A stretch of DNA of 64,000 bases from an uncultured Actinomycetes bacterium (GCA_964618935.1 CAZUDL010000006.1:71874-135873); one strand, 5' to 3'; shown: positions 29,930-60,609, counted from the first letter of the stretch. Numbers and translations: made by a program. The notes: generated by a model from the sequence alone, not told the origin.

Positions 29930-29950
29930 CAGTGGAGGAGGGAACCATCC

Positions 29951-30868
<918 letters not shown>

Positions 30869-43654: not shown

Positions 43655-43774
43655 GCGGCGGGTACCACCGGACCGTAACAGGTCGGTGATGTCTCAGAAT
43701 TCAATCGCGTCATTCAGCATACTTGGCTGGCCCACCATGGATGGTACATGTCTCCGGAGGACCCTCCAGTGAAC

Positions 43775-45018: not shown

Positions 45019-45023
45019 TTCCC

Positions 45024-47012
45024 ATGCGCCCAAACCGTCCCCGAGTGATCGTGCGCGGCGAGCGCGGACAGGTCATGGTGATCTTCGCTCTGGTCTCCCT
45101 CGTCCTCTTCGCCATCGTCGGCCTGTCCATCGACGCCGGCATGAGCTACCTGGCCAGCGACCAGGTGTCGCGTGCCGCAGACGCCGCCGCCCTGGCCGGA
45201 GTGGCCTACATGCCCGGCGAATACGGCAGCGCGGAGAACGCGGCCCTGGTCGAAGCCGCCCGTAACGGCTTCACCGATGCCGGATCCAACAACACATGCA
45301 CGGCATCCCAGTTCCCCTGCGTCATCACCTCGCAACCGCCCGGCACCACCAACCAGCTCAAGGTCACCATCTCGGTGACGGTGCCGTCGACCTTCCTCAA
45401 ACTGCTCGGCTTCGGCTCGCACGTCGTCACCCGTTCGGCGACCGCCGAGTACCTGCCCCCCATCGCCCTCGGCCAGCCGGGAACCCAGCAGGGCAGCACT
45501 CTGGCCCAGCTGGGCACGGCCAACAACTTCTACTTCGAGCGCACCGAGGGCTACGGCAACCCGCGCTCCGAGGGCGACCCCTTCACACCAGCAGCCGATG
45601 ACTCCGCCAACTCCTGCGACCCGCAGAGCAGCTGCGCGGCGACGACTGCCCCGGACGCGCAGGCCATCAGCCAGACCAACGGCACCGAGAAGGCCTACCC
45701 CGGATACAACCTCAACTACAACGGAGGCTACGACTACCTCATCACGCTGGCACCGGGGCAGAGCGCCGACGTCCAGGTCTACGACCCGGCCTTCGCGCCC
45801 GACAACGCGGACGACGCCAACGACACCACCTACACGTACCACGAGGACGATGGCAGCTTCCCGGACGACAACAACACGACGGGGCGGACCGACACCACCA
45901 CCGATTCGGAATACTCGGCGATGTCCTACACGCTCTTCTCAGTGCCCACGCTCTCGTCGGACATGCAGGACACGCTCGTCAGCCAGGACGTCTTCTACCC
46001 GTACAATGCCACCTGCATCGCCACCAATGGCACCGGCCAGTACGACAGCGGCGGGACCATGACCGACTGCCCCAGCGGCGGCCCCAGCTACTTCTACTTC
46101 AACGGCTCCGGCCATGCGACGACGGTGAAGGGTCACACCCCCGCGACGTACCACCAGTGGGTGTCGGTGATCGATTACACGCCGTCCGCTGCCGATGCCA
46201 ACCTCGTCTCCGTGACCAACCAGCAGAACGGCGTGCTCGACAACACGACCAGCACCACCGAGTACTTCCGCCTCGAGGTTGACACCCTGACCTGGAACGG
46301 CCAGGCGACCTGCACCAGCAACCCCTGTGGCAGCGATCCCGACACGGGGAACCTCTCGGATGGCAGCTCCACCGCCCACAAGGGCTACTCCGTGCAGATC
46401 GTTCCCGCGGTGGCGGGCGACTGCGCCAACACAACGACGGTCACCGAGTGCGGCGTCTCGGCCATGGACGACATGACCGTGTACACGCCGATCATCAACG
46501 CCAGCAGCACCAGCCATGCGCAGTTCAGCATCCCTCTCTTCCGGCTCGACCCGTCGTATGCGGGACACACCATCGATGTCGACATCTTCGACATCGGCGA
46601 CGTCTCGAACACGACGGCCGGGGGTGCCTGGGTCGGGGTGCAGCAGCCCGACACAGGATGGGGCCAGTTCCCCAGCGGGGTCACGACGATGACCAACCTG
46701 GGGACCTCCCTCAACGAGGATGGGGCGACCTACGCGGTGTCTGCCAACTGGGAGGGCACGGCGACGCCTCACAGCGCCGTCTTCCAGACCGCGAACGCGA
46801 CGGGGGGCGCGATCTACAACGGGCAGTGGGTCCAGGTCCAGATCAGCGTTCCCTCGACGTTCGCCGACGCCGCGGCCTGCTCCGGCGGGAGCAGCAACTG
46901 CTGGAACGACTACTGGAACCTCGTCTATGACGTGGGTCCCCAGACGATCTCGGGAGACACCTTCGCGGTCGAGGTCGGATTCGCCGGCTCGCCCGATCAC
47001 CTTCTCCCCTGA
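45024..47012 (+). CDS. TadG-like large pilus-assembly/adhesin protein, Asn/Thr/Ser/Gly-rich
   Basis: N-terminus RGERGQVMVIFALVSLVLFAIVGLSIDAGMSYLASDQVSRAADAAALAG (Tad/TadG-like pfam13400-type), then ~600 aa of N/T/S/G/D-rich extracellular sequence. ATG with GGAGGAG Shine-Dalgarno. Confidence 0.6.
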   Translation: MRPNRPRVIVRGERGQVMVIFALVSLVLFAIVGLSIDAGMSYLASDQVSRAADAAALAGVAYMPGEYGSAENAALVEAARNGFTDAGSNNTCTASQFPCVITSQPPGTTNQLKVTISVTVPSTFLKLLGFGSHVVTRSATAEYLPPIALGQPGTQQGSTLAQLGTANNFYFERTEGYGNPRSEGDPFTPAADDSANSCDPQSSCAATTAPDAQAISQTNGTEKAYPGYNLNYNGGYDYLITLAPGQSADVQVYDPAFAPDNADDANDTTYTYHEDDGSFPDDNNTTGRTDTTTDSEYSAMSYTLFSVPTLSSDMQDTLVSQDVFYPYNATCIATNGTGQYDSGGTMTDCPSGGPSYFYFNGSGHATTVKGHTPATYHQWVSVIDYTPSAADANLVSVTNQQNGVLDNTTSTTEYFRLEVDTLTWNGQATCTSNPCGSDPDTGNLSDGSSTAHKGYSVQIVPAVAGDCANTTTVTECGVSAMDDMTVYTPIINASSTSHAQFSIPLFRLDPSYAGHTIDVDIFDIGDVSNTTAGGAWVGVQQPDTGWGQFPSGVTTMTNLGTSLNEDGATYAVSANWEGTATPHSAVFQTANATGGAIYNGQWVQVQISVPSTFADAAACSGGSSNCWNDYWNLVYDVGPQTISGDTFAVEVGFAGSPDHLLP

Positions 47013-47048
47013 CCCGGGGCGCGCCGGTCGGTCTCCCCCCCGGGCCCG

Positions 47049-48311
47049 TCAGCGCAGGGCCTCGTCGACCAGCTCGATGACGTCGCGGACCTGGAGCCGG
47101 CCCTGGTTGCCGGTCGACTTCACGGCGTCCTCGAAGCGGGAGACCTCGTACGGGCAGCAGACGGCCAGGGTGTCCGCGCCCGTCTCCACCGCCTCGCGGA
47201 CCCGCCGCTCGCTGAGACGCTCCGCGATATGGTCGCGGGCGAAGCCGTCGAGCCACATGCCACCGCCGCCCCCGCCGCAGCAGTAGGCGTTCTCGCGGCA
47301 GCGGCGCATCTCCACCAACTCCAGGCCGGGGATGCTGCGGATCATCTGCCGCGGGGCGTCGTACTCGCCGTTGTGACGGCCCAGGTAGCAGGGGTCGTGG
47401 AAGGTGACCCGGTAGGGCAGCTCACGCGTCCAGGGAAGCCCCCCGAGCAGCGGGGCGAGGAACTGGGTGTAGTGGCTGACGTCGTAGCTGGCGCCGAGCT
47501 TGGGGTACTGGTGGCGCAGGGCGTTGTAGGCGTGGGGGTCGGGGGTGACCAGGCGGGTGAAGGCGTGGCGGGCGAGGGTCGCGATGTTCCGCTCCGCCTC
47601 CGCCTCGAAGAGGCCCCGCTCGCCGGCCATGCGCTGGCTGTCGCAGGCGCACCTCTCCTCCTGGCCGAGGATCCCCCAGTCGACGCCCAGCGCCGCCATG
47701 ACGCGGGCGAAGGCGCGCGCCGCGTCCCGGCCTCGGGGGTGATAGGACCAGTAACACTCCACGAAGACGAGGACGTCGACGGGGCGGGGATCGCGGCTCA
47801 GCACCGTCACCGGCACGCCCGCCTCGGCCACCCAGTCGGCCCGGCGGCGGGCGGGCTCACCGAGCGGGTTGCCGTGGCGGAAGGTGTTCTCCAGGGCGGT
47901 CTGCAGCTCGGCCGGGACGTTGCCCTGGGCCACGGCCTGCTCGCGCACCGCCGGCATGATCTGGAGCATGTCGACCTGCTTGGGGCAGACGCGCAGGCAG
48001 TTGGCGCAGGTGGTGCAGAGCCAGAGATCGGGGCTCTGGAGGAGATCGGCGCCCAGCTGGGTGCGCCGGTAGATCTTGCGGGGGCTGTAGTCGCCCACAT
48101 GGTCCACCGGGCAGACGGGGGTGCAGCCGCCGCACTGGAAGCAGGACCCCAGCGACTCGGCGCCGGCGATCTCCCGGACGCGGTCGAGGGCGCCGACGTC
48201 GTAGTCCCAGATCACCCGTTGCTCGAACATCCGGTTCCACGACCCGGAGATGTCCACCCCCTCGAAGGTGAGCTCCTTCTCCTCGGCGATCCGGGGGGGC
48301 GGATCGGCCAT
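47049..48311 (-). CDS. fused HdrC-HdrB-like (HdrD/GlcF-like) iron-sulfur protein, sHdr C2B2 equivalent
   Basis: Two ferredoxin motifs CFQCGGCTPVCP and CTTCANCLRVCP, followed by two CCG domains (VECYWSYH...; CYLGRHNGEYD...AYCCGGGGGGMWL...AVCCPYE). No TM segment. Confidence 0.75.
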   Translation of the reverse strand: MADPPPRIAEEKELTFEGVDISGSWNRMFEQRVIWDYDVGALDRVREIAGAESLGSCFQCGGCTPVCPVDHVGDYSPRKIYRRTQLGADLLQSPDLWLCTTCANCLRVCPKQVDMLQIMPAVREQAVAQGNVPAELQTALENTFRHGNPLGEPARRRADWVAEAGVPVTVLSRDPRPVDVLVFVECYWSYHPRGRDAARAFARVMAALGVDWGILGQEERCACDSQRMAGERGLFEAEAERNIATLARHAFTRLVTPDPHAYNALRHQYPKLGASYDVSHYTQFLAPLLGGLPWTRELPYRVTFHDPCYLGRHNGEYDAPRQMIRSIPGLELVEMRRCRENAYCCGGGGGGMWLDGFARDHIAERLSERRVREAVETGADTLAVCCPYEVSRFEDAVKSTGNQGRLQVRDVIELVDEALR

Positions 48312-49054
48312 CAGGCTCCCCGCCGCTGGACGCCGAGCAGCCGGCGCACCAGCTCGGGCGCCGGCGGGAGCACCGCGTTGAACTCGCGGCTCATGGCCGT
48401 CCCGGTGACGGTGTAGAGGTGGGCGGCGTAGACGGCGGCGAGGAACACGTCCACGCCGAACGGGGCCGGGCCGAAGCGGGTGATGCCCGCCGCCACCGCG
48501 GTCCGCTCGACGAAGGCGATGCCCTCCCCCACCCGCAGGTAGCTCTGGCCCGCCGACGCCGCGCTCAGATCGAGCTCCTCCGGGGTCGCCAGCGACAGGG
48601 CCCCGGTGCCCGTCCCCGGGTCCCAGATCCACCGCGTCCACAGCCAGTGGCGCGACGGGTCGAAGAAGTGCAGCACCTCTCCGGCGACGTCGAGGCGGAT
48701 GCCCGGGTCGACCCCGGCCAGGGCCGCGTCGAAGGCGTCGACGCGCGCGGCGACGGGCCCGGCGCCGTGCAGGAGGTCCCAGAGGGCGGACCGCCAGGCG
48801 TCCACGCCGCCCTCCGACAGCAGCGCGCCGGCGCGGCGGCGGGCGGCGAAGATGGTGCGCAGGCAGGCGCGCAGCCTCTCCGCGGAGACGTCGCGCAGCA
48901 CGCCGCGATCCAGCGCGTCCTGGAAGAGCCGGGACTTCGCCAGCAGGTCAGCGGCGACGCCCTCGAGCCCGGGCTCGGTGATCAGCGCCTGGGCCTGCCT
49001 CGCGAACTCGGCGGCGGCCTCGGTGCCGGCCACCTGGCCCTGGCCCCGGGTCAT
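48311..49054 (-). CDS. conserved hypothetical protein in the hdrA-hyp-hdrC2B2 position
   Basis: MTRGQGQVAG...DPSRHWLWTRWIWDPGTGTG. 247 aa. ATGA overlaps on both sides. The N-terminal 250 aa of ORF 48311..49801 overlaps hdrA and is an artefact. Confidence 0.5.
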   Translation of the reverse strand: MTRGQGQVAGTEAAAEFARQAQALITEPGLEGVAADLLAKSRLFQDALDRGVLRDVSAERLRACLRTIFAARRRAGALLSEGGVDAWRSALWDLLHGAGPVAARVDAFDAALAGVDPGIRLDVAGEVLHFFDPSRHWLWTRWIWDPGTGTGALSLATPEELDLSAASAGQSYLRVGEGIAFVERTAVAAGITRFGPAPFGVDVFLAAVYAAHLYTVTGTAMSREFNAVLPPAPELVRRLLGVQRRGA

Positions 49055-50121
49055 GCCCGCGGCGTGGCCGGCTCGGCGCGGCGGACCGCTGCCACCGCCC
49101 TGGCGGCGGCGGCGCCCGCCATGGAGACGCTGTCGTCCAGGTCCTTGGGGCCGGCCGCGGCGCCGGCGACGTAGATGCCCGGCACGGAGGTGCTGACGCT
49201 GTCCAGGGCGTCCTCCGCCACGGCGATGAAGCCGTGCTTCTCCTGGGCCACACCGAGCAGCGGGCCGATCGCCCTGGTCCCCTCCGACGGCACCATGCCG
49301 ACCGAGAGGACGACCACATCCATGGGGATCTCCAGGGGCCGGTTCATGGTCGTGTCCTCGCCCTTGATCACCAGGCGGTCGCCGCGCCTCGTGACCTCGG
49401 TGACGATGCCGCGCACGAAGTTGACGTGGTCCTCCTCCTGCGCCTTCCAGTAGAGGCGATCCTCCCAGAAGCCGTAGGTGCGCATGTCGATGTAGAAGAT
49501 GAAGACGCGGCAGTCCGGCACCAGGGCGCGGATCTCGGAGGCCTCCTTGGTGGCCACGGCGCAGCAGACCTTGGAGCAGTACTCGTTGCCGATGCGGCGG
49601 TCGCGGGAGCCGACGCACTGGATGAAGCAGACCTGCGCCGGCGGCAGCCCGGTGGAGGGCCGCACGAACCTCCCCGCCGACAGCATGCGCTCGGCGTCGA
49701 CCAGGGTGATGACGTCCTCGTACTCGTAGTAGCCGTACGCCTGCGTCTCCCGCCCGGGATCGAAGTGGTCGAAACCGGTGGCGATGATGACGGCGCCGCA
49801 CTCCACCACCGCGGTCGCCCCGTCCGCGTCGCGGAGCGTGGCCCGGAACGCCCCCAGCTCCCCCTCGAAGGCGGTCACCGACACACCCAGGCGCACCGAG
49901 ACGAGGGGATGGCCGAGCACCGCCCGGCGGGCCGCCTCGAGCACGACCTGCACCGGGCGGTGGTCGAGGGCGAACGCGGAGAAGCCGGCGGCGTCGGGGG
50001 TGCCGCCCAGCCGCTGCCGCTGCTCGACCAGCACCACCGGGCAGCCCAGGCCGACGGCGGCCCGGGCCGCCTCCAGCCCGGCCGGGCCGCCGCCGACGAC
50101 GAGGATCGTCTCAGCCGACAT
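49051..50121 (-). CDS. HdrA-like FAD-dependent iron-sulfur flavoprotein (heterodisulfide reductase subunit A family)
   Basis: ILVVGGGPAGLEAA (FAD GxGxxG)...CFIQCVGSRDRRIGNEYCSKVCCAVATKEA (HdrA-type Cx...CSxxCC 4Fe-4S)...GIYVAGAAAGPKD. Confidence 0.8.
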   Translation of the reverse strand: MSAETILVVGGGPAGLEAARAAVGLGCPVVLVEQRQRLGGTPDAAGFSAFALDHRPVQVVLEAARRAVLGHPLVSVRLGVSVTAFEGELGAFRATLRDADGATAVVECGAVIIATGFDHFDPGRETQAYGYYEYEDVITLVDAERMLSAGRFVRPSTGLPPAQVCFIQCVGSRDRRIGNEYCSKVCCAVATKEASEIRALVPDCRVFIFYIDMRTYGFWEDRLYWKAQEEDHVNFVRGIVTEVTRRGDRLVIKGEDTTMNRPLEIPMDVVVLSVGMVPSEGTRAIGPLLGVAQEKHGFIAVAEDALDSVSTSVPGIYVAGAAAGPKDLDDSVSMAGAAAARAVAAVRRAEPATPRA

Positions 50122-51310
50122 CCGTCCCCTCCCAGGTCACGTGCTCGATCTCGCCGCTCCTGATGCGCCGCAGGTCCTCCTCGAACTCCGCCCAGCGCGC
50201 CTCCCAGTCGATCCCCATCTTGGTCAGCAGCGGACGGTAGTCCACGGCGTGCCAGTGCAGCTGGCAGACCCGGTAGGGGTGCGCCCCCATCGAGAGGGCC
50301 ACGAACTGGGCCTCCGACATCACCGGAATGCCCACCTTGAACCCCTTGGCGCGGGCCACGAACTGGCTCTTGTCCAGCGTCGTGACGCAGCCCGTGTCGT
50401 GGGTCAGCACCACGTCGGGATTGGCCTCGTCGCGCATCACCTCGATCTTGCGCAGGGTGGCGAAGGAGCGGGTGAAGTCGCGCTGCAACATGATGTGCCG
50501 GAAGCCGAAGCCGCAGCAGTCGAACCACGTCGAGTAGTCGGCCACGGTGGCACCCATGGCCTGCACCACCGCGGAGACCACGGCGGTGCGCTGGCCGCCG
50601 TAGAGATCGGCGTCGTAGATGGCGTCCTCGGCCACCAGTTTGTAGTAGTGGCAGGCGGGGTGCACCGTGGCGGTGATCGCGGAGACGTCGAAGACGCGGC
50701 GCCTGGCGAACTCGTCACGCATGGCGTGCACCCATTCGCTGTAGTGCACGATCTCCTCGGGGATGACCATCGGTTTGCCCAGCTTGGCGAGGATGTCGCG
50801 CACCTGGTGGCGCAGCTCCGGGCTGTGGACGAGCTGCTCGCGGACCTCCTTGTAGTGGCCGTAGCTGGTGCCGCAATGGATCAGCGGGTAGTACCCCGTC
50901 TCGTGCGCTGCCGCGAAGTTGCGCAGCGCCACCGCCGCCTGGGCGGCGGCGTTGGAGGTCGCCGACGCATAGTAGTTCCACGCCGTGCACGAGGTCTGGT
51001 CGCGCGGGTCCTCGTAGTCCAGGCCCAGGGCCCGGTGCAGCCAGAAGATGGACGTCGAGTACCCGGGCAGGTGGCCGCACTGGCCGCAGCTCTTGTGGTG
51101 CCAGGTGTGCCGCACCGGGATCCTCTTGGTGCGCCCGTACTTGGTCTCCAGCTCGACATACGGCTCGGGCACGCGCTGGACGATCCACTCCCCCCGGCGC
51201 TCCAGCTCGAAGACGGCCTCGCGCAGATCCTCGGTGGGGGCGTTGGCCGGATCCCGTGTGAACGTCCGTCCCGCGGGGCCCAGCGCGGACAGCGTCACCA
51301 TGCCGCTCAT
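50111..51310 (-). CDS. HdrB-like protein with two CCG (Cys-rich) domains
   Basis: HKSCGQCGHLPGY...CTAWNYY and HPACHYYK...FDCCGFGFRH...THDTGCVTT. No ferredoxin CxxCxxCxxxCP motif. 399 aa. Confidence 0.75.
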   Translation of the reverse strand: MSGMVTLSALGPAGRTFTRDPANAPTEDLREAVFELERRGEWIVQRVPEPYVELETKYGRTKRIPVRHTWHHKSCGQCGHLPGYSTSIFWLHRALGLDYEDPRDQTSCTAWNYYASATSNAAAQAAVALRNFAAAHETGYYPLIHCGTSYGHYKEVREQLVHSPELRHQVRDILAKLGKPMVIPEEIVHYSEWVHAMRDEFARRRVFDVSAITATVHPACHYYKLVAEDAIYDADLYGGQRTAVVSAVVQAMGATVADYSTWFDCCGFGFRHIMLQRDFTRSFATLRKIEVMRDEANPDVVLTHDTGCVTTLDKSQFVARAKGFKVGIPVMSEAQFVALSMGAHPYRVCQLHWHAVDYRPLLTKMGIDWEARWAEFEEDLRRIRSGEIEHVTWEGTDVG

Positions 51311-51353
51311 GCTGCGCCCGCTGCGCGACCGGCGCGACGCTCAAGGCGGCGCA

Positions 51354-51728
51354 TCAGTAGCAGAACACCCGGCACTCGTCGGAGAGCGCCATCTCCGTGT
51401 AGCGCGCCGCGCCCATGGCACCGTCGACCTCGGGGATGAGGTCCTCCATGGTGAGGTCGTGCAGCGACAGCGACGCCGGGCAGACGTAGAGCGAGGCTCC
51501 GGCCGCCTTCGCCTGACGGATGAAGTCGAGCACCGTCTTGTCCTCACCGTCCTTGATGGTCAGCGTCTCCGCTACACCCTTCTTGAGCAGCAGGGTGCCG
51601 TCGATGAGGGTCACGATGACGCACTCGTAGTCGAGCGCCGTCGCGGCCATGGCCTGGAAGAAGGGCGTGCCGAGTCGGTGTCGCGTGTCGGGCCCCGACG
51701 TCATCATGATCAGCAGCGTGTTGGGCAT
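51354..51728 (-). CDS. DsrE/DsrF/TusD-like sulfur-relay family protein
   Basis: MPNTLLIMMTSGPD...YECVIVTLIDGTLLLKKG...SLYVCPASLSL. DsrE-fold Cys in CPAS. ATG with GGAGG Shine-Dalgarno. Confidence 0.65.
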   Translation of the reverse strand: MPNTLLIMMTSGPDTRHRLGTPFFQAMAATALDYECVIVTLIDGTLLLKKGVAETLTIKDGEDKTVLDFIRQAKAAGASLYVCPASLSLHDLTMEDLIPEVDGAMGAARYTEMALSDECRVFCY

Positions 51729-51862
51729 TGAGGCCTCCACCGCGGCGCCGGCCGACCCCGACTCGCGGCGTTGACGGCAGGATGCATACTGTGTTCACAT
51801 GTGGTTGTCGCGGTTCGAATGCCCCGGGAGTCCGGGGCGGAACGCGGCGAGGAGGGACGGCG

Positions 51863-52426
51863 ATGCCGACCAAGGTGTCCGCTGACGCGGAGATAGAGGA
51901 GCGCGTCCGCCAGGCCGTCGACGCCTACCTCGCCGAGAAGGCTCAGAAGGAGGCAGAGCGGCCCAAGAAGATCGCGCTGATCTCCAGCAAGGGCACGCTC
52001 GACATGGCCTACCCGCCCCTCATCCTCGCCACCACCGCGGCGGCGCTGGGCTGGGAGGCCGGCATCTTCTTCACCTTCTATGGCCTGAACATCATTCATC
52101 AGAAGAAGCACGCCAAGCTGCAGGTCGCGCCGCTCGGCAACCCCGCCATGCCCATGCCCGTCCCCAACCTGGTGGGCGCCATCCCGGGCATGACCGCGCT
52201 CGGCTCGACGATCATGAAGTCGATGTTCAAGTCGCACGGCATCGCCACCATCGACGATCTGCTCGAGGCGGCCGTCGACGGCGGCGTGCGGCTCATCCCC
52301 TGCTCCATGACCATGGACGTCTTCGGTTACAAGCCGACCGACTTCCTGAAGGGCGCCGAGGCTCCCTGCGGGGCGGCGACGTTCCTCGACTGGGCCGCCG
52401 ACTCGGACATCTCGCTGTTCATCTGA
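51863..52426 (+). CDS. DsrE/DsrF-like (DsrE3-type) family protein
   Basis: KKIALISSKGTLDMAYPPLILATTAAALGWEAGIFFTFYGLNII...VRLIPCSMTMDVFG. DsrE3-like conserved Cys. ATG with GGAGGG Shine-Dalgarno. The ORF 51728..52426 N-terminus is rejected. Confidence 0.6.
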   Translation: MPTKVSADAEIEERVRQAVDAYLAEKAQKEAERPKKIALISSKGTLDMAYPPLILATTAAALGWEAGIFFTFYGLNIIHQKKHAKLQVAPLGNPAMPMPVPNLVGAIPGMTALGSTIMKSMFKSHGIATIDDLLEAAVDGGVRLIPCSMTMDVFGYKPTDFLKGAEAPCGAATFLDWAADSDISLFI

Positions 52427-52461
52427 GCGCGCCCGGGGGGGTATGCGGAGCATGGGACGTC

Positions 52462-53934
52462 TCACTCTGACCGGGACGCCGCGGCCCGCCCCCACAGCGC
52501 GGGGCGGGTCAGCGGGACGGCGAGCTCCGGCCACACCCTCGGGTCGGGCCGCGGAGCGTATTCGCCGGTGACCGGGCTCACGTCGTAGGTCCAGCGCGGA
52601 CCCTCGCCGGCGATCCGGGTGAGCGCCTCGACGAGGCGATCCACGTCCCCCCTGGTCGTGCCCAGGCCCATGCTCATCCTCACCGCCCCCGGGACGCTGC
52701 GCCGGTCCCCGGCGATCAGCCGGCAGCGCACCAGCTCCGCCTCGGCGGGGTCGACGTGCAGCAGGTCCACCATCAGCGGATGGGCGCAGAAGCAGCCGTT
52801 GCGGACACCGATGCCGAACTCGGCGCTGAGGACGACGGCGAGCTGGCTGTGCTGGAAGCCGCCGAGGTTGAAGGTGACCACGCCGATGCGGGCACTGTCG
52901 TCGTGCCACGATCGGTAGAGCTCGATGCCGGGGATCTCGGCCAGCCGTCCTCGCGCGTACGCGCCCAGCTCCAGCTCCTCGCCAGCCACCCGGTTCATGC
53001 CATAGTCGCCCAGAACCCGCACGGCCGCGCCCAGCGCCACGGCGCCGGTGACGTTCGGCGAGCCCGCCTCCTGGCGGTCGGGCAGCGCGGTCCAGAGGAC
53101 GTCCCCGCCGGTGACGAACTCGACGGCTCCCCCGCCGCGCAGGAAGGGGGCGGAGCGCTCCAGCCAGTCCGGGCGCCCGATGAGCACGCCGACGCCGAAG
53201 GGCGCGTACATCTTGTGGCCGGAGGCCGCCATGTAGTCGACCCCGAGGTCACGGATGCTGACGGGGAAATGCGGCGCCAGCTGGGCGGCGTCCAGCAGCA
53301 CGCGGGCGCCGTGCGCGTGGGCCACGTCGGCCAGCTCGCGCACCGGCCAGATCTCGCCGGTGACATTGGACGCGCCGGTGATGGCGACCAGGTCGGTGCG
53401 GGTGCGCTCGAGATGGCGGGCCAGCGCCGCGACGGCCTCCTCCGCACTGCGGGGCACCTCCAGGTGGGTCGTGCGGAGCGTGTCCCGCCGCCAGGGCAGG
53501 AGGTTGGCGTGGTGCTCGGAGACGAAGGTCACGATCGAGGTCCCGGCCGGCAGCGACCCGGCCAGCAGGTTGACAGACTCCGTCGTGTTGCGGGTGAAGA
53601 TGACGACGTCGTCGGAGCGCGCGTCGAAGAACTCGTGGACGGCGTCGCGAGCGCCCTCGTAGGCGGCGGTCGCCAGCTGCGACTTGAAGCCGGTGCCGCG
53701 ATGGATGCTGCTGTAGTAGGGCAGGAACTCGGTGAGGGCGTCGGTCACCTCGGTGAGCGGCGGCGTGCTCGCCGCATAGTCGAGGTTGACGTAGCGAGTC
53801 CACCCACCGGTGACCAGCGGCACCTCGACGCCATCGCCGAGCAGCGCGGGCCGTGCCGTCGCCGACGCGTCGCATCCGGTGGCTGCGATGCCCGCGGGCA
53901 CACTGCCGCGCACGCGGACGGGGAACGTGGTCAC
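52462..53934 (-). CDS. class-V aminotransferase / cysteine desulfurase-like (SufS/CsdA group) with C-terminal extension
   Basis: SGHKMYAPFGVGVL (PLP Lys)...VRNGCFCAHP (cf. RxGHHCAxP persulfide-Cys loop). GTG start. Confidence 0.8.
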   Translation of the reverse strand: MTTFPVRVRGSVPAGIAATGCDASATARPALLGDGVEVPLVTGGWTRYVNLDYAASTPPLTEVTDALTEFLPYYSSIHRGTGFKSQLATAAYEGARDAVHEFFDARSDDVVIFTRNTTESVNLLAGSLPAGTSIVTFVSEHHANLLPWRRDTLRTTHLEVPRSAEEAVAALARHLERTRTDLVAITGASNVTGEIWPVRELADVAHAHGARVLLDAAQLAPHFPVSIRDLGVDYMAASGHKMYAPFGVGVLIGRPDWLERSAPFLRGGGAVEFVTGGDVLWTALPDRQEAGSPNVTGAVALGAAVRVLGDYGMNRVAGEELELGAYARGRLAEIPGIELYRSWHDDSARIGVVTFNLGGFQHSQLAVVLSAEFGIGVRNGCFCAHPLMVDLLHVDPAEAELVRCRLIAGDRRSVPGAVRMSMGLGTTRGDVDRLVEALTRIAGEGPRWTYDVSPVTGEYAPRPDPRVWPELAVPLTRPALWGRAAASRSE

Positions 53935-54137
53935 GTCGCCGCCAGACTCACGCGACTCGCGGCCGGCGATGCGTCATGAGGGTCGCCGTCGCGCCGTGGG
54001 AACGGCATGGGCCGGCAACCACCTCATGGTGCCATACTATACCGCATCAGTAGACATTCCGCCCCGGGCGGTCCGGCGCCCCAGCCCGCCGGCGGCACCG
54101 CCACGCCGCGCGGCGAGATGACCCCAGGAGTCCCACG

Positions 54138-54905
54138 TTGCGCATCGCGGTGATCATGAAACAGGTCCCGGACCTGGTTGAGGACGTCGAGGTGGACGCC
54201 CGAGGAACGGCCATCGACCGCGACGGAGTGCGCTGGACGGTGAACGAATTCGACGGTCACGCCCTGGAGCAGGCGATGCTGCTCAAGGAGGCGGTCGGGG
54301 CCGAGGTCACCGTCCTGGCCGTCGCCGCCGCCGGCATCGACCAGGTGCTCTTCGCCGCCCTGGCCCGGGGCGCGGACCGGGCCATCGTGGTGCCCACCCC
54401 GGAGGGCCGGACGGATGCCCCCCGGGTGGCGGCGGCCCTGGCGCCTGCGCTCACCGAGATCGGCGCGGACCTGGTCCTGACCGGCGTCCAGGCGGCCGAC
54501 GATCTCCACGGCCAGCTCGGCCCGATCCTGGCCGCGTCGCTGGGATGGCCCCACGTCAGCGTCGTCTGCGGCGCCGAGCTCCACGGCTCGGCGGTCGTCG
54601 TGCAGCAGGAGTACTCCGGCGGCCGGACGGCCGCCCTCGAGGTCGATCTCCCCGCCGTCCTCGGCGTCCAGGCCGCCGGCCGCCCGCCCCGGTACGTGCC
54701 CATCAGCCGGCTCCGCCAGGTCATCGCCTCGGCCACCATCGGCTCGCACGCCCCCGCCGCCGTGGTGCCGGCCCCGGCGACCACGGTGACCCGGCTGGCG
54801 GCCCCGGCCCAGGAGTCGCTGGCGCGCATGCTGGAGGGAAGCGCCGACGACGTGGCGCGCCAGATCGTCGAGGCGCTCCACGAACACGGCCTGGTGGGCG
54901 TCTGA
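54138..54905 (+). CDS. etfB: electron transfer flavoprotein beta subunit
   Basis: TTG start with AGGAG Shine-Dalgarno: MRIAVIMKQVPDLVEDVEVD...LVLTGVQAADD. Confidence 0.9.
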   Translation: MRIAVIMKQVPDLVEDVEVDARGTAIDRDGVRWTVNEFDGHALEQAMLLKEAVGAEVTVLAVAAAGIDQVLFAALARGADRAIVVPTPEGRTDAPRVAAALAPALTEIGADLVLTGVQAADDLHGQLGPILAASLGWPHVSVVCGAELHGSAVVVQQEYSGGRTAALEVDLPAVLGVQAAGRPPRYVPISRLRQVIASATIGSHAPAAVVPAPATTVTRLAAPAQESLARMLEGSADDVARQIVEALHEHGLVGV

Positions 54906-54907
54906 GC

Positions 54908-55876
54908 ATGCCCGGCATCCTCGTCTACATCGAGGCCGACCCCGGCGGTGTCGCCCCCGTCAGCTTCGAGGTCCTGGGGGCGGCGCGCACCCTGGCGCCG
55001 CATCTCGGCGGCCCCGTCGAGGCGCTGGTGGCCGCGGCCGACCCGGACACCCTGGCCGCCGCGCTGGGGGCCGCGGACAGTGTCCTCACGGTGACCGATC
55101 CGTCCCTCACCCCCTACCTCCCCGAGGCGCACCGGGCGGCCCTCGAAGAGGCCATCCGCGTCCGGCAGCCGTCGGTCGTCCTCATCGGCGGCACCTCCGC
55201 GGGGATCGACCTCGCCGCCGGCGCCGCCACCGCCACGAGCCGTCCCCTGGTCGCCTACTGCACCGCCCTGAGGGTGGCGGGGCAGGAGATGGAGGCCGAG
55301 AGCCAGCTCTACGGCGGCAAGCTGGTGGCGACCACCAGGACGGCCCCGCCGGCGATCTTCTCGCTGGTCGCGGGGTGCTTCCCCGAGGCTCCCGGGCACG
55401 CGCCGGGGACCGCCCCCCGCATCGCCCTGCCGCCGCCGGCCGCCCTCCAGCGGCTGAGGACGAGGCTGGTGGGGACGGGGGCCGCCGCCGCCGGCACGGT
55501 GGACATCACCAAGGCCGAGCGGATCGTCAGCGTCGGACGCGGCATCGGCGCCCCCGGCGACATCGACCTGGCCCGCGACCTGGCGACCGCCCTCGGTGCC
55601 GAGCTGGGCGCCTCCCGCCCGGTGGTCGACAGCGGCTGGCTGCCCAAGGAGCGGCAGGTGGGCAAGTCGGGGATGACCGTGAAGCCCAGGCTCTACGTGG
55701 CCGTCGGCATCTCCGGGGCGCCGGAGCACCTCGAGGGCATGCGCGGCGCCGGAGTCATCGTGGCCATCAACACCGACCCCGGCGCCCCGATCTTCCAGGT
55801 CGCCACCTACGGCAGCACCTGCGACTTCGGCGATCTCCTCCCCGCCCTCAGCGCCCGCCTGACGGCAGCCGGCTGA
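54908..55876 (+). CDS. etfA: electron transfer flavoprotein alpha subunit
   Basis: [11 protein letters not shown]...IVSVGRGIG...[43 protein letters not shown] (FAD-binding). Confidence 0.9.
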
Positions 55877-55880
55877 CCCG

Positions 55881-57875
55881 GTGGCGGTGCCCGCGATCCT
55901 CCTGCTCGCCCTGGTCGCGGCGGTCCTCCTCTGGTCCGGCACCCGCTACTGGCGGGTGCTGCGCCCCTTGGCCTCGGCTGCGCCCGAGCACCGCTCCGAC
56001 CACCCGGGGACCCGGCTCCGCGGTGTCGTCACCGAGGTCGGCGGCCACACCCGCCTCTTCGAGGTCCCCTACTCCGGGACGTTGCACGCGCTCATCTTCG
56101 GAGGCTTCGTGGTCCTGCTCACCGCGCTCGTCGAGGAGGCGGGCCGCCTGGTGGCGCCCGGATTCAGCCTCGACGCCATCGGCGGCTCCACCTGGATCGC
56201 CCTGCTGCAGGACGTCTTCGAGGTCGCCGTCCTGGTGGGGGTCTGCATGGCCGCCTACAACCGCTGGGCCCGGCGGCCCGCCCGCTTCCGCGGCTCCAAC
56301 CAGCGCGACGCGGCGGTGATCCTGGCGCTGATCTTCTGCGAGATGGTCAGCCTGCTCCTCCACGACGCCTTCCGCATCGGCCAGGGCGGCGATGCCGCCG
56401 CCGGCTGGCAGCCGGTGGCATCGGCGCTGGCGCGGCTGATCGAGGTGGCCGGGGTGCACGACGCGGCCGCCGCGCCCTGGGCGGGTGCCTTCTTCTGGGC
56501 CCACGTCACCGCGCTCCTCGTCTTCCTCCCCTACATCGCCACCAGCAAGCATCTGCACATCGCCACGGCCGTCCCCAACCTCTACTTCCGCAATCTCGGG
56601 CCCCGCGGCGCGCTGCGCCCGGTCGACCCCGGCGGCCCGGCGGTCGGGGTCGGCGAGGTCGACCAGCTCAGCTGGAAGCAGATGCTCGACCTCTACGCCT
56701 GCACCGAGTGCGGCCGCTGCCAGGACGCCTGTCCCGCCTTCGCCGCCGGCCAGCCGCTCAGCCCCAAGGTGCTGATCATGGACGTGCGCAACCACCTCCG
56801 CGACCGCGGCCGCTCCGCCACACGGAAGGCGGCAGGGGGCGCCGTGCCGCAGCTGCTCGGCGACGTCGTCCGCGACGAGACCCTCTGGGCCTGCACCACC
56901 TGCACCGCCTGCATGGAGGTGTGCCCCCTCCACATCGAGCACGTCCCCCTCATCGTCGACATGCGCCGCCGCCTCGTCGAGGAGGGTCGCATGGAGCCGC
57001 CGCTCCAGGACGCGCTGGCCAGCCTGGCCCGCCACGGCAACTCGTTCAACCGCTCGGAGCGGGCGCGATCGGCATGGACCAGGGATCTCGGCTTCCCGGT
57101 CAAGGACGCGCGCACTGAGCCGGTCGACGTGCTCTGGTTCGTCGGCGACTACGCCGCCTACGACCCCCGGGTGCAGGAGCTCACCAGGGGCGTCGCCCGC
57201 GTGCTGCACCGCGCCGGCGTCGACTACGGCATCCTCTACGAGGCGGAGCGGAACAGCGGCAACGACGTGCGCCGCGTCGGCGAGGAGGGGCTGTTCGAGC
57301 AGCTCGCCCGGCACAACATCGAGACGCTGGGCCGGTGCAGCTTCCGCCGCATCATGACCGCCGACCCCCACAGCCTCAACGCCCTCGCCCAGGAGTATCC
57401 GGGGATGGGCGGCCGCTATCCGGTGCTCCACTACACGCAGCTGCTGCTGGAGCTGGTGGAGAGGGGGGCGCTGGCGCCGGCGCCCCACCCGCAGGTGGTG
57501 ACCTACCACGATCCCTGCTACCTGGGACGCTACAACCAGGGGTACGACGCCCCGCGGCGGCTCCTGGAGCGCCTCGGCGTCACTCTCCACGAGATGCCGC
57601 GCTGCCGGGAGGCGAGCTTCTGCTGCGGGGCCGGCGGCGGCCGCATCTGGATGGATGACAGCGGGCAGACGGAGCGCCCCAGCGAGTCGCGGATCCGCGA
57701 GGCGGTCGCCCTGGGTGACGCCCACCGCCTGGTCGTGGCCTGCCCCAAGGACATGGTGATGTTCACCGCCGCGGTGCAGGCGACCGGCATGGCCGGGCGC
57801 ATGGAGGTGGTGGACGTCATCGAGCTGGTGGAGGCGTCCCTGACGCCGGAGGAGGTGGCCGTTGCCGTCGCCTGA
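55881..57875 (+). CDS. membrane-anchored Fe-S oxidoreductase, HdrE/NarI-like cytochrome-b N-domain fused to HdrD/DsrK-like CCG domain (EtfD-like)
   Basis: 5-6 TM with conserved His (HALIFGG, HDAF, WAHVTALLVFLPYIATSKHLHIA), then CTECGRCQDACP and CTTCTACMEVCP ferredoxin motifs, then CCG domains (YHDPCYLGRYNQGYD...FCCGAGGGRIW...VVACPKD). GTG 4 nt after etfA stop. Confidence 0.8.
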   Translation: MAVPAILLLALVAAVLLWSGTRYWRVLRPLASAAPEHRSDHPGTRLRGVVTEVGGHTRLFEVPYSGTLHALIFGGFVVLLTALVEEAGRLVAPGFSLDAIGGSTWIALLQDVFEVAVLVGVCMAAYNRWARRPARFRGSNQRDAAVILALIFCEMVSLLLHDAFRIGQGGDAAAGWQPVASALARLIEVAGVHDAAAAPWAGAFFWAHVTALLVFLPYIATSKHLHIATAVPNLYFRNLGPRGALRPVDPGGPAVGVGEVDQLSWKQMLDLYACTECGRCQDACPAFAAGQPLSPKVLIMDVRNHLRDRGRSATRKAAGGAVPQLLGDVVRDETLWACTTCTACMEVCPLHIEHVPLIVDMRRRLVEEGRMEPPLQDALASLARHGNSFNRSERARSAWTRDLGFPVKDARTEPVDVLWFVGDYAAYDPRVQELTRGVARVLHRAGVDYGILYEAERNSGNDVRRVGEEGLFEQLARHNIETLGRCSFRRIMTADPHSLNALAQEYPGMGGRYPVLHYTQLLLELVERGALAPAPHPQVVTYHDPCYLGRYNQGYDAPRRLLERLGVTLHEMPRCREASFCCGAGGGRIWMDDSGQTERPSESRIREAVALGDAHRLVVACPKDMVMFTAAVQATGMAGRMEVVDVIELVEASLTPEEVAVAVA

Positions 57876-57962
57876 GCCGCCCGGAGGACGTCGGGATTCC
57901 CTCCTGTACCATGGCGGAATCCATGCCGAGGCCGCCGCCCAGCGGCCCGCGGAGGCCTGACC

Positions 57963-58400
57963 GTGGCGACCGTCAACCATTGCGACATCCCCGAAGACCT
58001 GCACTATCTGGTGGACAAGCACGTCTGGGTGCAGCGCCAGGACGACGGTGCCGTCCTGCTCGGCATCACCGACCCCGCCCAGAAGCTGGCCGGCAGGATC
58101 GTCGCCCTCACCACCAAGAAGGTCGGGCGCGTCATCACCAGGGGACAGAGCGCCGGCACCGTCGAGAGCTCCAAGTGGGTGGGACCGATCCCGAGCCCGC
58201 TCAGCGGCGAGATCGTGGCCGTCAACGAGGCCCCGCTGAAGGACCCCGCCGTGCTCAACCGGGAGCCCTACGCCAACTGGATCGTGCGCCTCCAGCCCAG
58301 CCTGTGGGACGAGGAGTGCGGCGAGATGGTGACCGGTGCCGAGGGGGTTGAGGCGTACCGCCGCCTGCTCGCCGAGGCGGGCATCGACTGCGACAGTTGA
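57963..58400 (+). CDS. GcvH-like lipoate-binding protein (LbpA-type by context)
   Basis: LLGITDPAQKLAGRIVALT...GTVESSKWVGPIPSPLSGEIVAVNEAPLKDP. Lipoyl-Lys in ESSKW. GTG with GGAGG Shine-Dalgarno. Confidence 0.8.
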   Translation: MATVNHCDIPEDLHYLVDKHVWVQRQDDGAVLLGITDPAQKLAGRIVALTTKKVGRVITRGQSAGTVESSKWVGPIPSPLSGEIVAVNEAPLKDPAVLNREPYANWIVRLQPSLWDEECGEMVTGAEGVEAYRRLLAEAGIDCDS

Positions 58401-58424
58401 CACAACGAGAACGGGAGGAGAACG

Positions 58425-58664
58425 ATGGCCATCGATAGTGCGGATTTGACCCTGGACTGCCGGCACATGCTGTGCCCGACACCGATCGTCAAGGTGTCCA
58501 AGGCGATCAAGGAGGTGGAGCTCGGCCAGACGCTGCTGCTCATCGCCGACGACCCTGGGGCGCCCTCCGACGTCCAGAGCTGGTCGCGCCGCACCGGCAA
58601 CGAGCTGGTCTCCACCGAGCAGGAGGGCGACGTGTCGCGATTCCTGATCCGCCGCACCCGCTGA
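58425..58664 (+). CDS. TusA-family sulfurtransferase
   Basis: LDCRHMLCPTPIVKVSKAIKEV. CPxP motif. 79 aa. GGGAGGAG Shine-Dalgarno. Confidence 0.8.
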   Translation: MAIDSADLTLDCRHMLCPTPIVKVSKAIKEVELGQTLLLIADDPGAPSDVQSWSRRTGNELVSTEQEGDVSRFLIRRTR

Positions 58665-59347
58665 TGTCTCCCCCCCCGGCCCCCGCCGCCACTCTCGAGG
58701 AGAGATGGCGGCTGCTCGCCGAGGTGGAGGCGGACCCGCGCTTCCCCGACTGCCTGCGGGGCTGTTTCGAGTGCGGCATCTGCGTGGCGGCGTGCCCGTC
58801 GGCGCGCTTCTACGACTTCAGTCCCCGCCGCATCGTGCAGGCGATGGCACGCGAGGACGTCGATCTGGTGTGGGAGCAGATGAACCACGACGTCTGGGAC
58901 TGCTCCCAGTGCTTCTCCTGCCTGCGCTGCCCGCGGGGCAACAACCCCGGCGGCGTGATCACCATCATGCGCGAGGTGGCGGTGCGCAACGGGCTCCACT
59001 CGGCCAAGCAGGCGCTCGCCGGGTACGGCCGCATCATCTACAAGATCATGGCCACCGGGACGCAGGTGGCCCCGGACATGATCCAGCCCGAGTCCTTCCC
59101 CGACTGGGGCCCGGTCACCCGCGAGATCGCCGACAACCTCCAGGTCTGGCGCCAGGCGCTGCCGCCGGAGACGCTCCACACCACCGGCGCGTCGTGGGAC
59201 GTCGACGCCAAGACGGTCGCCGAGCTCTACCTCATCTGGCACCTGACGGGCGTCCTCGACATCATCAAGAGCGTCGACCCGACACTGCACTCGATCCTCA
59301 GCGACGTCATGGAAGAGGTGCTGGAGGAGCACGGGTACCAGGTCTGA
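58664..59347 (+). CDS. HdrC-like ferredoxin (2x[4Fe-4S])
   Basis: CFECGICVAACP and CSQCFSCLRCP. 227 aa. ATG overlaps tusA stop (TGATG). Confidence 0.75.
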   Translation: MSPPPAPAATLEERWRLLAEVEADPRFPDCLRGCFECGICVAACPSARFYDFSPRRIVQAMAREDVDLVWEQMNHDVWDCSQCFSCLRCPRGNNPGGVITIMREVAVRNGLHSAKQALAGYGRIIYKIMATGTQVAPDMIQPESFPDWGPVTREIADNLQVWRQALPPETLHTTGASWDVDAKTVAELYLIWHLTGVLDIIKSVDPTLHSILSDVMEEVLEEHGYQV

Positions 59348-59357
59348 TGGCACTGCG

Positions 59358-59384
59358 CCGCGCCCGGCGGGCCGGCGGGCGCGG
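59358..59384. terminator. GC hairpin CCGCGCCCG-(9 nt)-CGGGCGCGG between convergent hdrC-like and nitroreductase genes
   Basis: Seen in sequence. 9-bp stem, no U-tract. Bidirectional terminator candidate. Confidence 0.35.
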
Positions 59385-59816
59385 TCAGAGAGGGGTGAGG
59401 CGGAAGACCGGGTGGCGCGGCGCCTCGGCGGCGATCTCCGCAAGGGACGCGCCGTGCTTGACGTCGAAGAAGGGGCGCACCACGGTCACCTGCTTCAGGT
59501 ACTCCTTCAGCACCGGCGCCGCCTCATGGGGCGGGACCTGCTCGATGCGCAGGCGTTGCGTTCGCCCGCGACGGCTCACCTCGACCTCCCCGGCGGCGCG
59601 CGCGTTGCGCACCCAGGCGACCTCGCCGTACGGGGCCACCAGCCAGCGCTCGCGGTCCTCGATCAGCCGCACCGGCGTGGACCGCGAGAGGCCCGTGCGC
59701 CGGCCCTTCACCGTCAGCGTGTACGTGTGCCGCCCGCCGAGACCGCCACGGTCGAGCAGCTTGATCACCGCGTTCACGGCGCGGCGTGCCGGGCCGCGGC
59801 GGTACGTCCTCGGCAT
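59385..59816 (-). CDS. nitroreductase-family deazaflavin-dependent oxidoreductase (DUF385/PNPOx-like)
   Basis: MPRTYRRGPARRAVNAVIKLL...TVKGRRTGLSRSTPV...WLVAPYGEVAWVRNARAAGEVE. Matches the DUF385 family pattern. Confidence 0.65.
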   Translation of the reverse strand: MPRTYRRGPARRAVNAVIKLLDRGGLGGRHTYTLTVKGRRTGLSRSTPVRLIEDRERWLVAPYGEVAWVRNARAAGEVEVSRRGRTQRLRIEQVPPHEAAPVLKEYLKQVTVVRPFFDVKHGASLAEIAAEAPRHPVFRLTPL

Positions 59817-59817
59817 G

Positions 59818-60192
59818 CTAGAGGAGGCTTCCCACCAGCAGCAGCACCGCCGACGCGGTGAGCAGCACCGGGCAGATCTTGAACCAGACCACCGGCGTAC
59901 GCGCCCCGGTGAGGGCCGTCAGCACGGCGAGCGCGACCAGCCACGCCGCGGCGACCCGGTCGATCCACAGCGTGGACGTGGCGTGCGCCCCACCGGCGGC
60001 GGTGGCCACGACGAGCACCGCCGCGAGGCCCCACATGGTGATCGCCTCCGCCAGCCATTCCTGCTTGACGACGCGCCGGTTGTCGACGGTCACGGGCTCG
60101 AAGCCCACCAGCACCTGGTGCGTGGGGATGGCATGGGCCACACCCCACAGGCCGACGAGGGCGGCGGCGGCGTAGACGAGGACGGCTGTCAC
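59818..60192 (-). CDS. small 4-TM membrane protein
   Basis: GTG start overlapping the upstream stop (GTGA). Hydrophobic VTAVLVYAAAALVGLWGV...LLTASAVLLLVGSLL. Confidence 0.45.
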   Translation of the reverse strand: MTAVLVYAAAALVGLWGVAHAIPTHQVLVGFEPVTVDNRRVVKQEWLAEAITMWGLAAVLVVATAAGGAHATSTLWIDRVAAAWLVALAVLTALTGARTPVVWFKICPVLLTASAVLLLVGSLL

Positions 60193-60482
60193 CCGGGCGG
60201 CGGCGCGGTGTGCCGGCCCATCTCGCGGGCGATGTCGGCCTCGGTGATCGGCCGGCGCCCGTACACGTCCCAGGCGTGCAGCACGATGCCGATGCCCCAC
60301 GCCGCCAGCACCCAACCGGGCCAGAAGTAGCTGTGGCCGGCGATGTACCAGATGGCGATCAGTCCGAGGTTGACGACGACGTAGCAGACCACGTGAGTCC
60401 CGAAGTCGCGCCGGGCGGACAGCCGCTGAATGGCCGCGGCGCGCTCGTCCGCCGGGTCGATCACCGAGGGTTTGCTGGCCAT
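60189..60482 (-). CDS. 2TM-domain membrane protein
   Basis: MASKPSVIDPADERAAAIQRLSARRDFGTHVVCYVVVNLGLIAIWYIAGHSYFWPGWVLAAWGIGIVLHAWDVY. ATG with AGGAGG Shine-Dalgarno. Confidence 0.55.
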   Translation of the reverse strand: MASKPSVIDPADERAAAIQRLSARRDFGTHVVCYVVVNLGLIAIWYIAGHSYFWPGWVLAAWGIGIVLHAWDVYGRRPITEADIAREMGRHTAPPPG

Positions 60483-60609
60483 CGTGGTTACCTCCTGGCG
60501 CGATGGTGGCGCTTCACGGCCCCCTCTCGCCACAGCGCTTGGTCACCTGGGGGAAGAGCCGAACGTCCCGTCCGGTGACGCCCCGCGCGCCGGCGTCAGC
60601 CGCGCCGCG

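Follow-up and report, generated by a model that had tools for sequence, protein, structure and literature searches.

A six-gene etfBA-emo-lbpA-tusA-shdrC1 block in a Candidatus Dormibacteria genome as a probable half of a type II sHdr-LbpA cluster

What brings the genes of an electron-transferring flavoprotein (ETF) and of a membrane Fe-S protein together with genes for sulfur carriers, and do they form one expression unit? This question is raised by six genes on the + strand (54138-59347) of a 64,000-nt stretch of DNA from an uncultured Actinomycetes bacterium (GCA_964618935.1 CAZUDL010000006.1:71874-135873), called the window below. In order, these are etfB, etfA, the gene for the membrane Fe-S protein, lbpA, tusA and hdrC. 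A first-pass annotation, made from the sequence, had read them as a single operon and as a dedicated entry module of the respiratory chain rather than a generic fatty-acid ETF. The block is probably one half, that of electron output and sulfur carriers, of a type II sHdr-LbpA system as already described in the literature, here in a Candidatus Dormibacteria genome. The gene previously called etfD is the emo of the type II literature, and hdrC is shdrC1; the latter names are used in what follows.

The six-gene block and the opposite half of the cluster

The six genes and the largest spacer among them are as follows.

54138-54905, + strand: etfB, ETF small subunit, 255 aa; TTG start with AGGAG 7 nt upstream; PF01012, E = 1.8e-26
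54908-55876, + strand: etfA, ETF large subunit with FAD-binding domain, 322 aa; ATG start; PF01012 and PF00766 (full-length match, E = 1.3e-33)
55881-57875, + strand: emo (etfD), membrane ETF:menaquinone oxidoreductase (EMO), 664 aa; GTG start; Fer4 and CCG
57876-57962, + strand: emo-lbpA spacer, 87 nt; GGAGG at 57951-57955 and the hexamer TACCAT at 57907-57912
57963-58400, + strand: lbpA, lipoate-binding protein, GcvH-like, 145 aa; GTG start with GGAGG 7 nt upstream; PF01597 (GCV_H), E = 6e-29
58425-58664, + strand: tusA, sulfur-carrier protein, 79 aa; PF01206, E = 1.6e-21
58664-59347, + strand: shdrC1 (hdrC), ferredoxin-like sHdr subunit, 227 aa; Fer4_8 and HdrC NCBIfam matches

Read directly from the sequence, with the junctions recomputed, the gaps in block order are 2 (gc), 4 (cccg), 87, 24 and -1 nt, the last being the 1-nt overlap TGATG of tusA and shdrC1, and the 24-nt lbpA-tusA spacer contains GGAGGA. 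Every figure of the first-pass annotation was reproduced in this way, and lbpA does have the Shine-Dalgarno sequence of its own that had been claimed for it. Third-position GC bias is 0.83-0.96 in all six open reading frames (ORFs), as for real genes, in a window of ~72% GC. The six proteins match the expected Pfam or NCBIfam families (ETF, ETF_alpha, Fer4 with CCG, GCV_H, TusA and HdrC-like Fer4), and their N-termini are consistent with those of homologues. In alignments, the lipoyl-Lys of LbpA lies within VESSKW and is conserved across all LbpA copies of relatives, to the first of whose two copies LbpA is 63-93% identical; the active-site Cys of TusA, likewise conserved, lies within LCPTP; and sHdrC1, at 76-97% identity to the product of the equivalently placed gene in relatives, carries two Cys-rich cluster motifs, CxxCxxCxxxCP and CxxCxxCxxCP, that are conserved in relatives. 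The sHdrC1 sequence is exactly that of MGD0834690.1, a protein of a Candidatus Dormibacteria metagenome-assembled genome (MAG).

The first-pass annotation overlooked the other half of the cluster (shdrB1, A, H, B3 and dsrE), which is located 2.8-7 kb upstream on the opposite strand. Together with two further genes, this half comprises the following features.

47049-48311, - strand: shdrB3, HdrC-like/HdrB-like fusion, 420 aa; 75-79% identity in relatives
48311-49054, - strand: shdrH, conserved protein, 247 aa; 52-59% identity to the ORF that relatives have between shdrA and shdrB3
49051-50121, - strand: shdrA, Fe/S flavoprotein, 356 aa; HdrA NCBIfam, E = 2.6e-74, and Pyr_redox_2
50111-51310, - strand: shdrB1, proposed catalytic CCG subunit, 399 aa; PF02754 and NCBIfam HdrB, E = 2.9e-37; 81-84% identity in relatives
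51354-51728, - strand: dsrE, sulfur transferase, 124 aa; PF02635; 72-77% identity in relatives
51863-52426, + strand: DsrE_2-family gene, sulfur-transferase-like, 187 aa; PF13686, E = 3e-47; 65-70% identity at the same position in three related loci (L034-L036)
52462-53934, - strand: class-V aminotransferase, cysteine-desulfurase-like, 490 aa, between the cluster halves; PF00266, E = 1.5e-88

The shdrH gene overlaps shdrA by ATGA and shdrB3 by TGATG, and its product matched no Pfam family. A Cys cluster is found at residues 165-187 of sHdrA, and sHdrB3 matches Fer4_8 at residues 53-112 and a single CCG domain at residues 301-386. The class-V aminotransferase could act as a local persulfide source. 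The trio of dsrE, dsrE_2 and aminotransferase genes also flanks the cluster in the related locus L042 and is absent from the colinear clusters L031-L036.

Type II sHdr-LbpA gene sets have the published order shdrC1B1AHB3-etfAB-emo (PMC11094781), and are detected by the presence of shdrC1, B1, A, H and B3 in one syntenic cluster (PMC11094781; PMC11582611). All five shdr genes lie within 47049-59347, at 52-84% identity to the counterparts in relatives; they are split over two strands, with C1 separate from B1AHB3. Further traits of type II are etfAB and emo in the same cluster, a fused sHdrB3 with one CCG domain, an LbpA bearing the lipoyl-Lys, and sulfur transferases of the TusA/DsrE type, all of which are encoded here, lipoylation of LbpA being predicted. 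With the full published set (shdrC1, B1, A, H, B3, etfAB, emo, lbpA, tusA, dsrE) contained in one neighbourhood of 12.3 kb (47049-59347), the locus is assigned to the type II sHdr-LbpA clusters. The published order shdrC1-B1-A-H-B3-etfAB-emo is not matched, as C1 stands behind tusA at the 3′ end; gene order is a descriptive trait outside the type II detection criterion. Supplementary Data 1 of PMC11582611 already lists Dormibacterota of the order UBA8260 among the carriers of type II sHdr.

The system is therefore one already described (Cao 2018, as 'Group III'; Tanabe 2024; Kümpel 2024), with all its defining genes common to the window cluster, and no new kind is revealed here; the arrangement of this member is permuted and unusually compact. 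The details added by the analysis are the alignment-based ligand map of EMO, the predicted ETF type and the tail position of shdrC1. The type I sHdr system (shdrC1B1AHC2B2, Hyphomicrobium denitrificans) has sHdrA, B1, C1, H, LbpA and a TusA/DsrE relay in common with the window, but differs in its separate C2 and B2 and in having neither EtfAB nor EMO, and an ETF-to-quinone output has not been proposed for it.

Gene order in relatives and transcription of the block

How closely do the six genes belong together? Related loci, 89 in number, were recovered from metagenomes with an sHdrC1 profile and annotated by tblastn with the window proteins. The published order, with shdrC1 at the head (tusA-dsrE-shdrC1-shdrB1-A-H-B3-etfB-etfA-emo-lbpA-lbpA), occurs in 65 of the 89. 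The remaining 24 have shdrC1 at the tail, B1-A-H-B3-etfB-etfA-emo-(small ORFs)-lbpA-(lbpA)-tusA-shdrC1, and it is these loci whose C1 is most similar to that of the window (74-97% identity). The two arrangements differ by a cyclic permutation, and the window has the tail one. Throughout the tail group tusA stands directly before shdrC1 (24/24), 0-35 nt apart. The stretch from etfB to shdrC1 lies downstream of and colinear with shdrB1AHB3 in nine loci (L031-L036, L045, L047, L051), divergent from it in the window, where shdrB1AHB3 is on the upstream side, and convergent with it in L037 and L042, where shdrB1AHB3 is on the downstream side; the stretch is unbroken in all three arrangements. A comparison of emo/etfD neighbourhoods had been suggested as a check on the operon claim, and its outcome, a block kept whole in colinear, divergent and convergent settings, is the best argument at hand that the six genes make up a single unit.

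Compared with the usual type II cluster, that of the window has shdrC1 and tusA at the 3′ end after lbpA, not 5′ before shdrB1, is laid out on two strands, contains one LbpA where two or three are usual, has no small ORFs between emo and lbpA, and has no lipoate-assembly or regulator genes nearby. In relatives, one or two small conserved ORFs are found between emo and lbpA (L035:11992-12662; equivalents in L031, L034, L036-L038), one of them encoding 94 aa with CxxC pairs and a weak zf-Di19 match, and a further small Cys-rich ORF precedes tusA. The emo-lbpA distance, 87 nt in the window, amounts to ~650-720 nt in the majority of relatives and to ~330 nt in L038 and L040. The window holds the most compact version, in which the emo-lbpA small ORFs, the other LbpA copy and the small ORF preceding tusA are all missing.

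Some tail-type relatives (L031-L033:1-3729) have an additional HdrB3-like gene, 60% identical, ahead of shdrB1; genes for two large HdrA-like flavoproteins, one with an MvhD/FlpD domain, come before it.

The first-pass reading of the block as a single unit is supported at the level of sequence: the six genes are co-oriented, three junctions (etfB/etfA, etfA/emo and tusA/shdrC1) have spacings that fit translational coupling, which is likely at each of them, and the order recurs in the 24 related loci. The genes from etfB to shdrC1 probably form a single transcript, which would start in the divergent intergenic region upstream of etfB:

53935-54137: divergent intergenic region upstream of etfB, 203 nt; AT-richer patch CATACTAT at 54033-54040

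We infer that this region is likely to be the promoter region of the block; it contains no sigma-70 consensus, Rfam match or significant fold. Across 46500-60500 an Rfam search gave no match, the three terminator-like matches of a terminator scan all fall inside coding sequence, and the folds of the 87-nt gap (z = 0.17), the lbpA-tusA spacer and the etfB leader do not go beyond those of shuffled controls.

The same genes could instead be divided into two transcription units, etfBA-emo and lbpA-tusA-shdrC1, the second being expressed from an internal promoter in the 87-nt gap, so that the block would be a conserved neighbourhood and nothing more. No other gap in the block is sizeable, a separate GGAGG precedes lbpA, and the hexamer TACCAT (of the form TANNNT), which could function as a -10 element, is placed 50 nt before the start of lbpA and recurs unchanged in L030, the relative of 87% identity; the interval is also evolutionarily plastic, with 0, 1 or 2 small ORFs in relatives. 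However, when the gap was checked, as the first-pass annotation had proposed, no terminator-like site, sigma-70 consensus promoter or significant structure was found in it, and neither a terminator-like hairpin nor a U-tract follows emo. Overlapping or abutting ORFs fill the interval in most relatives. The sequence of the gap is similar to that of L030 and not to those of L037 or L038, being unconserved beyond the closest relative, and alignment of the emo-lbpA spacer across four loci revealed no conserved element. An internal promoter would, moreover, be compatible with read-through. We regard a division into two units as somewhat unlikely. Two points nevertheless count against the single transcript: the promoter scan, which covered the sigma-70 consensus only and found no such promoter in 51300-60000, is weakly informative for a Dormibacteria genome of 72% GC, and a second promoter is possible in the 87-nt gap, with its strong Shine-Dalgarno sequence and its TANNNT hexamer.

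At the other end of the block, a GC hairpin after hdrC had been put forward as a terminator candidate. The hairpin is present, GC-rich and imperfect, with its core at ~59356-59377 in the 37-nt spacer between the convergent stops at 59347 and 59385, the latter belonging to a gene of the F420H2-quinone-reductase family. It is a weak candidate: it has no U-tract, it was not reported in the terminator scan, and on the + strand its fold does not clearly stand out from shuffled sequence (z = -1.3, equalled in 20 of 200 shuffles); on the - strand z is -2.3. A different hairpin occupies the equivalent position in L030.

In L030, the closest related contig, nucleotide identity to the window is 89% from window position 54517 onward. 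Its first part (L030:1-1238) is unrelated low-GC sequence that cuts into etfB, probably as an assembly chimera or an insertion, and the called etfB and etfA are fragmented. Because these 5′ 1.2 kb are unrelated, the contig is uninformative on the region upstream of etfB.

A motif CATACT(A/G)T occurs in AT-richer patches of both divergent intergenic regions, at 51785-51792 and 54033-54040, and the shared sequence may represent -10 elements or a common operator. An ArsR-type sHdrR gene, which is found beside shdrB1 in relatives, is absent from the window.

Electron flow through EtfBA and EMO

If the block is an output branch for electrons, which kind of ETF does it encode? The best PDB match of EtfB is 1o94_C, the canonical ETF of M. 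methylotrophus, and EtfA matches 6fah_A, 5ol2_A and 1o94_D, the best ones being bifurcating enzymes. Gly123 of A. fermentans EtfB is invariant in bifurcating ETFs, where the small residue leaves room for a second FAD (PMC12630350). In the window, EtfB Asp122 aligns with this Gly; human ETF also has Asp there, and Asp122 and the DD motif of EtfB are conserved in all relatives examined. Because EtfB has Asp at the position diagnostic of bifurcation, EtfBA is read as a canonical single-FAD, AMP-binding-type shuttle and not as a bifurcating enzyme. A bifurcating ETF (FixAB or EtfABCX-like), as suggested by the PDB matches of EtfA, was considered and rejected on the same diagnostic.

Over residues 9-656 EMO matches 9ojn_A, the EtfD of M. 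smegmatis (MsEtfD, or MsEMO; PDB 9OJN), with E = 8e-103. Homology extends along the entire length of both proteins, and both genes adjoin etfBA. The published ligands of MsEtfD (PMC13083937) were transferred to EMO through the 9OJN alignment. Five hydrophobic segments match the five transmembrane helices of MsEtfD, with a NarI-like membrane domain that has the bis-His ligands of heme b. The two proteins share this His pair (His69 and His226, aligned with Ms His78 and His241), the heme-propionate triad Arg128, Arg135 and Arg279, and the quinone-site pair Phe76 and Phe215. They also have in common the two cubane [4Fe-4S] clusters (D3 and D4), all eight Cys of which are present and invariant in 13 homologues. 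For the non-cubane [4Fe-4S] cluster with its His ligand (D2, second CCG domain), which EMO may share, Cys546, Cys581, Cys582, Cys621 and His497 are kept and the fifth Cys of MsEtfD is replaced by Asp624, invariant in the subfamily. The distal cluster D1 (first CCG domain) is a linear [3Fe-4S] in MsEtfD, whereas in EMO its four Cys are all substituted (Asp423, Asn458, Asp495, Ser498). The signature without D1 Cys is invariant in the 13 homologues, including proteobacterial proteins 56-61% identical to EMO that have the same Asp/Asn/Asp/Ser/Asp residues. MsEtfD differs further in a disordered C-terminal extension (~30 kDa) that EMO lacks, and in its partner pathway, which is beta-oxidation for MsEtfD and probably sulfur oxidation for the EMO of the window.

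The D1 cysteines are also absent in DgcB of P. aeruginosa and FadF of B. subtilis, which are still regarded as ETF acceptors (PMC13083937); unlike the sulfur cluster here, these serve dimethylglycine or fatty-acid catabolism. Because the EtfD paper already records it for FadF and DgcB, the loss of the distal cluster, as deduced from the aligned residues, is a known subfamily trait. It was considered as a novelty and rejected as such, being invariant in a very large subfamily.

The EMO of Syntrophus aciditrophicus (SaEMO) is of the same family and domain order as that of the window (bioRxiv 10.64898/2026.08.18.745454). Three His are conserved across EMO membrane domains according to the same paper, and all three are present here, as His69, His208 and His226. 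SaEMO has three hemes and a [4Fe:5S] distal cluster, whereas the window EMO is without a distal Fe-S cluster. The third His ligates the distal twin heme in SaEMO and is present but unused in MsEtfD; the twin distal heme of SaEMO couples quinone reduction to the proton gradient, in a reverse redox loop (bioRxiv 10.64898/2026.08.18.745454).

A contig search with EMO returned only distant homologues, at 29-56% identity. In Acidobacteriota and Chloroflexota MAGs (L001-L010; in detail L009:6225-20380), a MarR gene is followed in order by genes for an HdrB3-like protein, EtfB, EtfA and a homologue of EMO (39-56% identity), and then by hdrA, hdrC, hdrB, another hdrA and the genes for both [NiFe]-hydrogenase subunits, small and large; lbpA, tusA and shdrB1 are absent. 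These genes would seem to make up a different Hdr/hydrogenase system that uses the same ETF-EMO output module.

Taken together with the literature, these features suggest a route for the electrons. TusA and DsrE-type proteins would carry persulfide sulfur to lipoylated LbpA and to an sHdr complex of sHdrA, B1, C1 and B3, three of whose four subunits have their genes on the opposite strand. Electrons from its Fe/S and flavin centres would exit via sHdrC1 or sHdrB3 to the canonical one-FAD EtfBA, which would dock on the membrane EMO/EtfD. EMO would pass them on to menaquinone by way of two cubane Fe-S clusters, a non-cubane one and heme b. Electrons would in this way enter the respiratory chain directly, not via NAD+, and the overall role would be the cytoplasmic oxidation of sulfane sulfur. 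The sulfur relay and the dependence on LbpA are known from type I systems, according to the literature, and transfer from ETF through EtfD to menaquinone has been demonstrated in mycobacteria (PMC13083937). According to PMC11094781, EtfAB and EMO of type II shdr clusters are proposed to direct electrons to menaquinone. For the window we infer the electron transfer from sHdr to EtfBA, the subunit that delivers the electrons and the in vivo direction of flow. The dedicated respiratory entry module of the first-pass annotation fits the literature proposal (PMC11094781), and no acyl-CoA dehydrogenase gene lies nearby.

A general catabolic ETF would give the same genes a different role: EtfBA-EMO would then serve the oxidation of fatty acids, amino acids or dimethylglycine, as FadF, DgcB and EtfD do, and would only happen to lie beside sulfur genes. 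EtfBA is indeed of canonical type, and EMO belongs to a widespread subfamily without the distal cluster that includes the proteobacterial proteins 56-61% identical to it, with the same loss in FadF and DgcB (PMC13083937). Yet there is no acyl-CoA or dimethylglycine dehydrogenase gene adjacent, etfBA-emo comes right after shdrB3 in both architectures (among the 89 sHdrC1-homologue loci, where contigs reach), and even in distant homologues an HdrB3-like gene is located directly upstream of etfB. A general ETF is thus very improbable here.

Reversal of the flow within the sulfur system is a further alternative, in which electrons from menaquinol would reach the Hdr-like complex by way of EMO and ETF and reduce a disulfide, a persulfide or lipoamide, in detoxification or assimilation. 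The Syntrophus EMO is reversible, working in enoyl-CoA respiration or in a reverse redox loop, and the window EMO keeps the third His, which may ligate a distal heme; Dormibacteria are not established sulfur oxidisers, and a cysteine-desulfurase-like gene lies inside the cluster. On the other hand, cultured carriers of type II clusters are sulfur oxidisers (PMC11094781), and in relatives the cluster is associated with sat-aprBA and with sulfite handling of the TauE type, which fits oxidation to sulfite and sulfate. We consider reverse flow improbable, and prefer the oxidative direction, from sulfane sulfur to menaquinone.

Some observations weigh against this oxidative type II reading, or qualify it. 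For type II sHdr systems in general, the published model precedes any experiment. The 64-kb window contains no gene for lipoate ligase, LipS1/S2, an sHdrR-type regulator or TauE, and a single LbpA, whereas relatives have these genes beside the cluster; tblastn with L035 proteins likewise found no sLpl(AB) or LipS1/S2 in the 64 kb, and these may be encoded elsewhere in the genome. Neither the distal cluster nor the C-terminal extension that mycobacterial EtfD has is present in the EMO of the window, so that ETF docking may differ. His208 would allow a distal heme, whose presence could tie quinone reduction to the proton gradient, as in the Syntrophus EMO.

Wider meaning and neighbouring genes

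An uncultured soil lineage, Candidatus Dormibacteria, carries in this window a complete, very compact type II sHdr-LbpA cluster. The lineage is best known for trace-gas metabolism. The analysis makes three predictions for the output branch, namely a canonical ETF, an EMO that works without a distal Fe-S cluster, and an sHdrC1 that is co-encoded with the output. A bolder interpretation, which we hold to be unlikely and offer tentatively, is that the etfBA-emo-lbpA-tusA-shdrC1 block is an autonomous, movable expression unit derived by cyclic permutation, that HdrB3-like, EtfBA and EMO form a portable adaptor from Hdr-type complexes to the quinone pool, and that soil Dormibacteria use reduced sulfur as a supplementary electron donor. 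If this were true, the block would co-produce the sulfur carriers, sHdrC1 and the quinone-output branch, which would hint that sHdrC1 (with B3) physically bridges to ETF, and the adaptor would accompany sHdr here and HdrABC with a [NiFe]-hydrogenase in Acidobacteriota and Chloroflexota.

The remaining window is housekeeping chromosome (rpsB, pyrH, uppS, dxr, ispG, topA, ffh, rplS, smc, fabD/G, recG, Tad pilins, DAK2/FakA and rpmB). Next to shdrB3 lie three TadE/TadG-like genes for Flp-pilus assembly (43748-47012, + strand), the third encoding a Thr/Ser/Asn-rich protein of 662 aa in a stretch of locally lower GC (0.67-0.70). A gene pair that looks like cysE-cysK for cysteine synthesis, with a hexapeptide-transferase gene first and a gene for a pyridoxal-phosphate-dependent (PALP) enzyme second, is found at 28928-30868 (+ strand), at a distance of 16 kb from the sulfur cluster.

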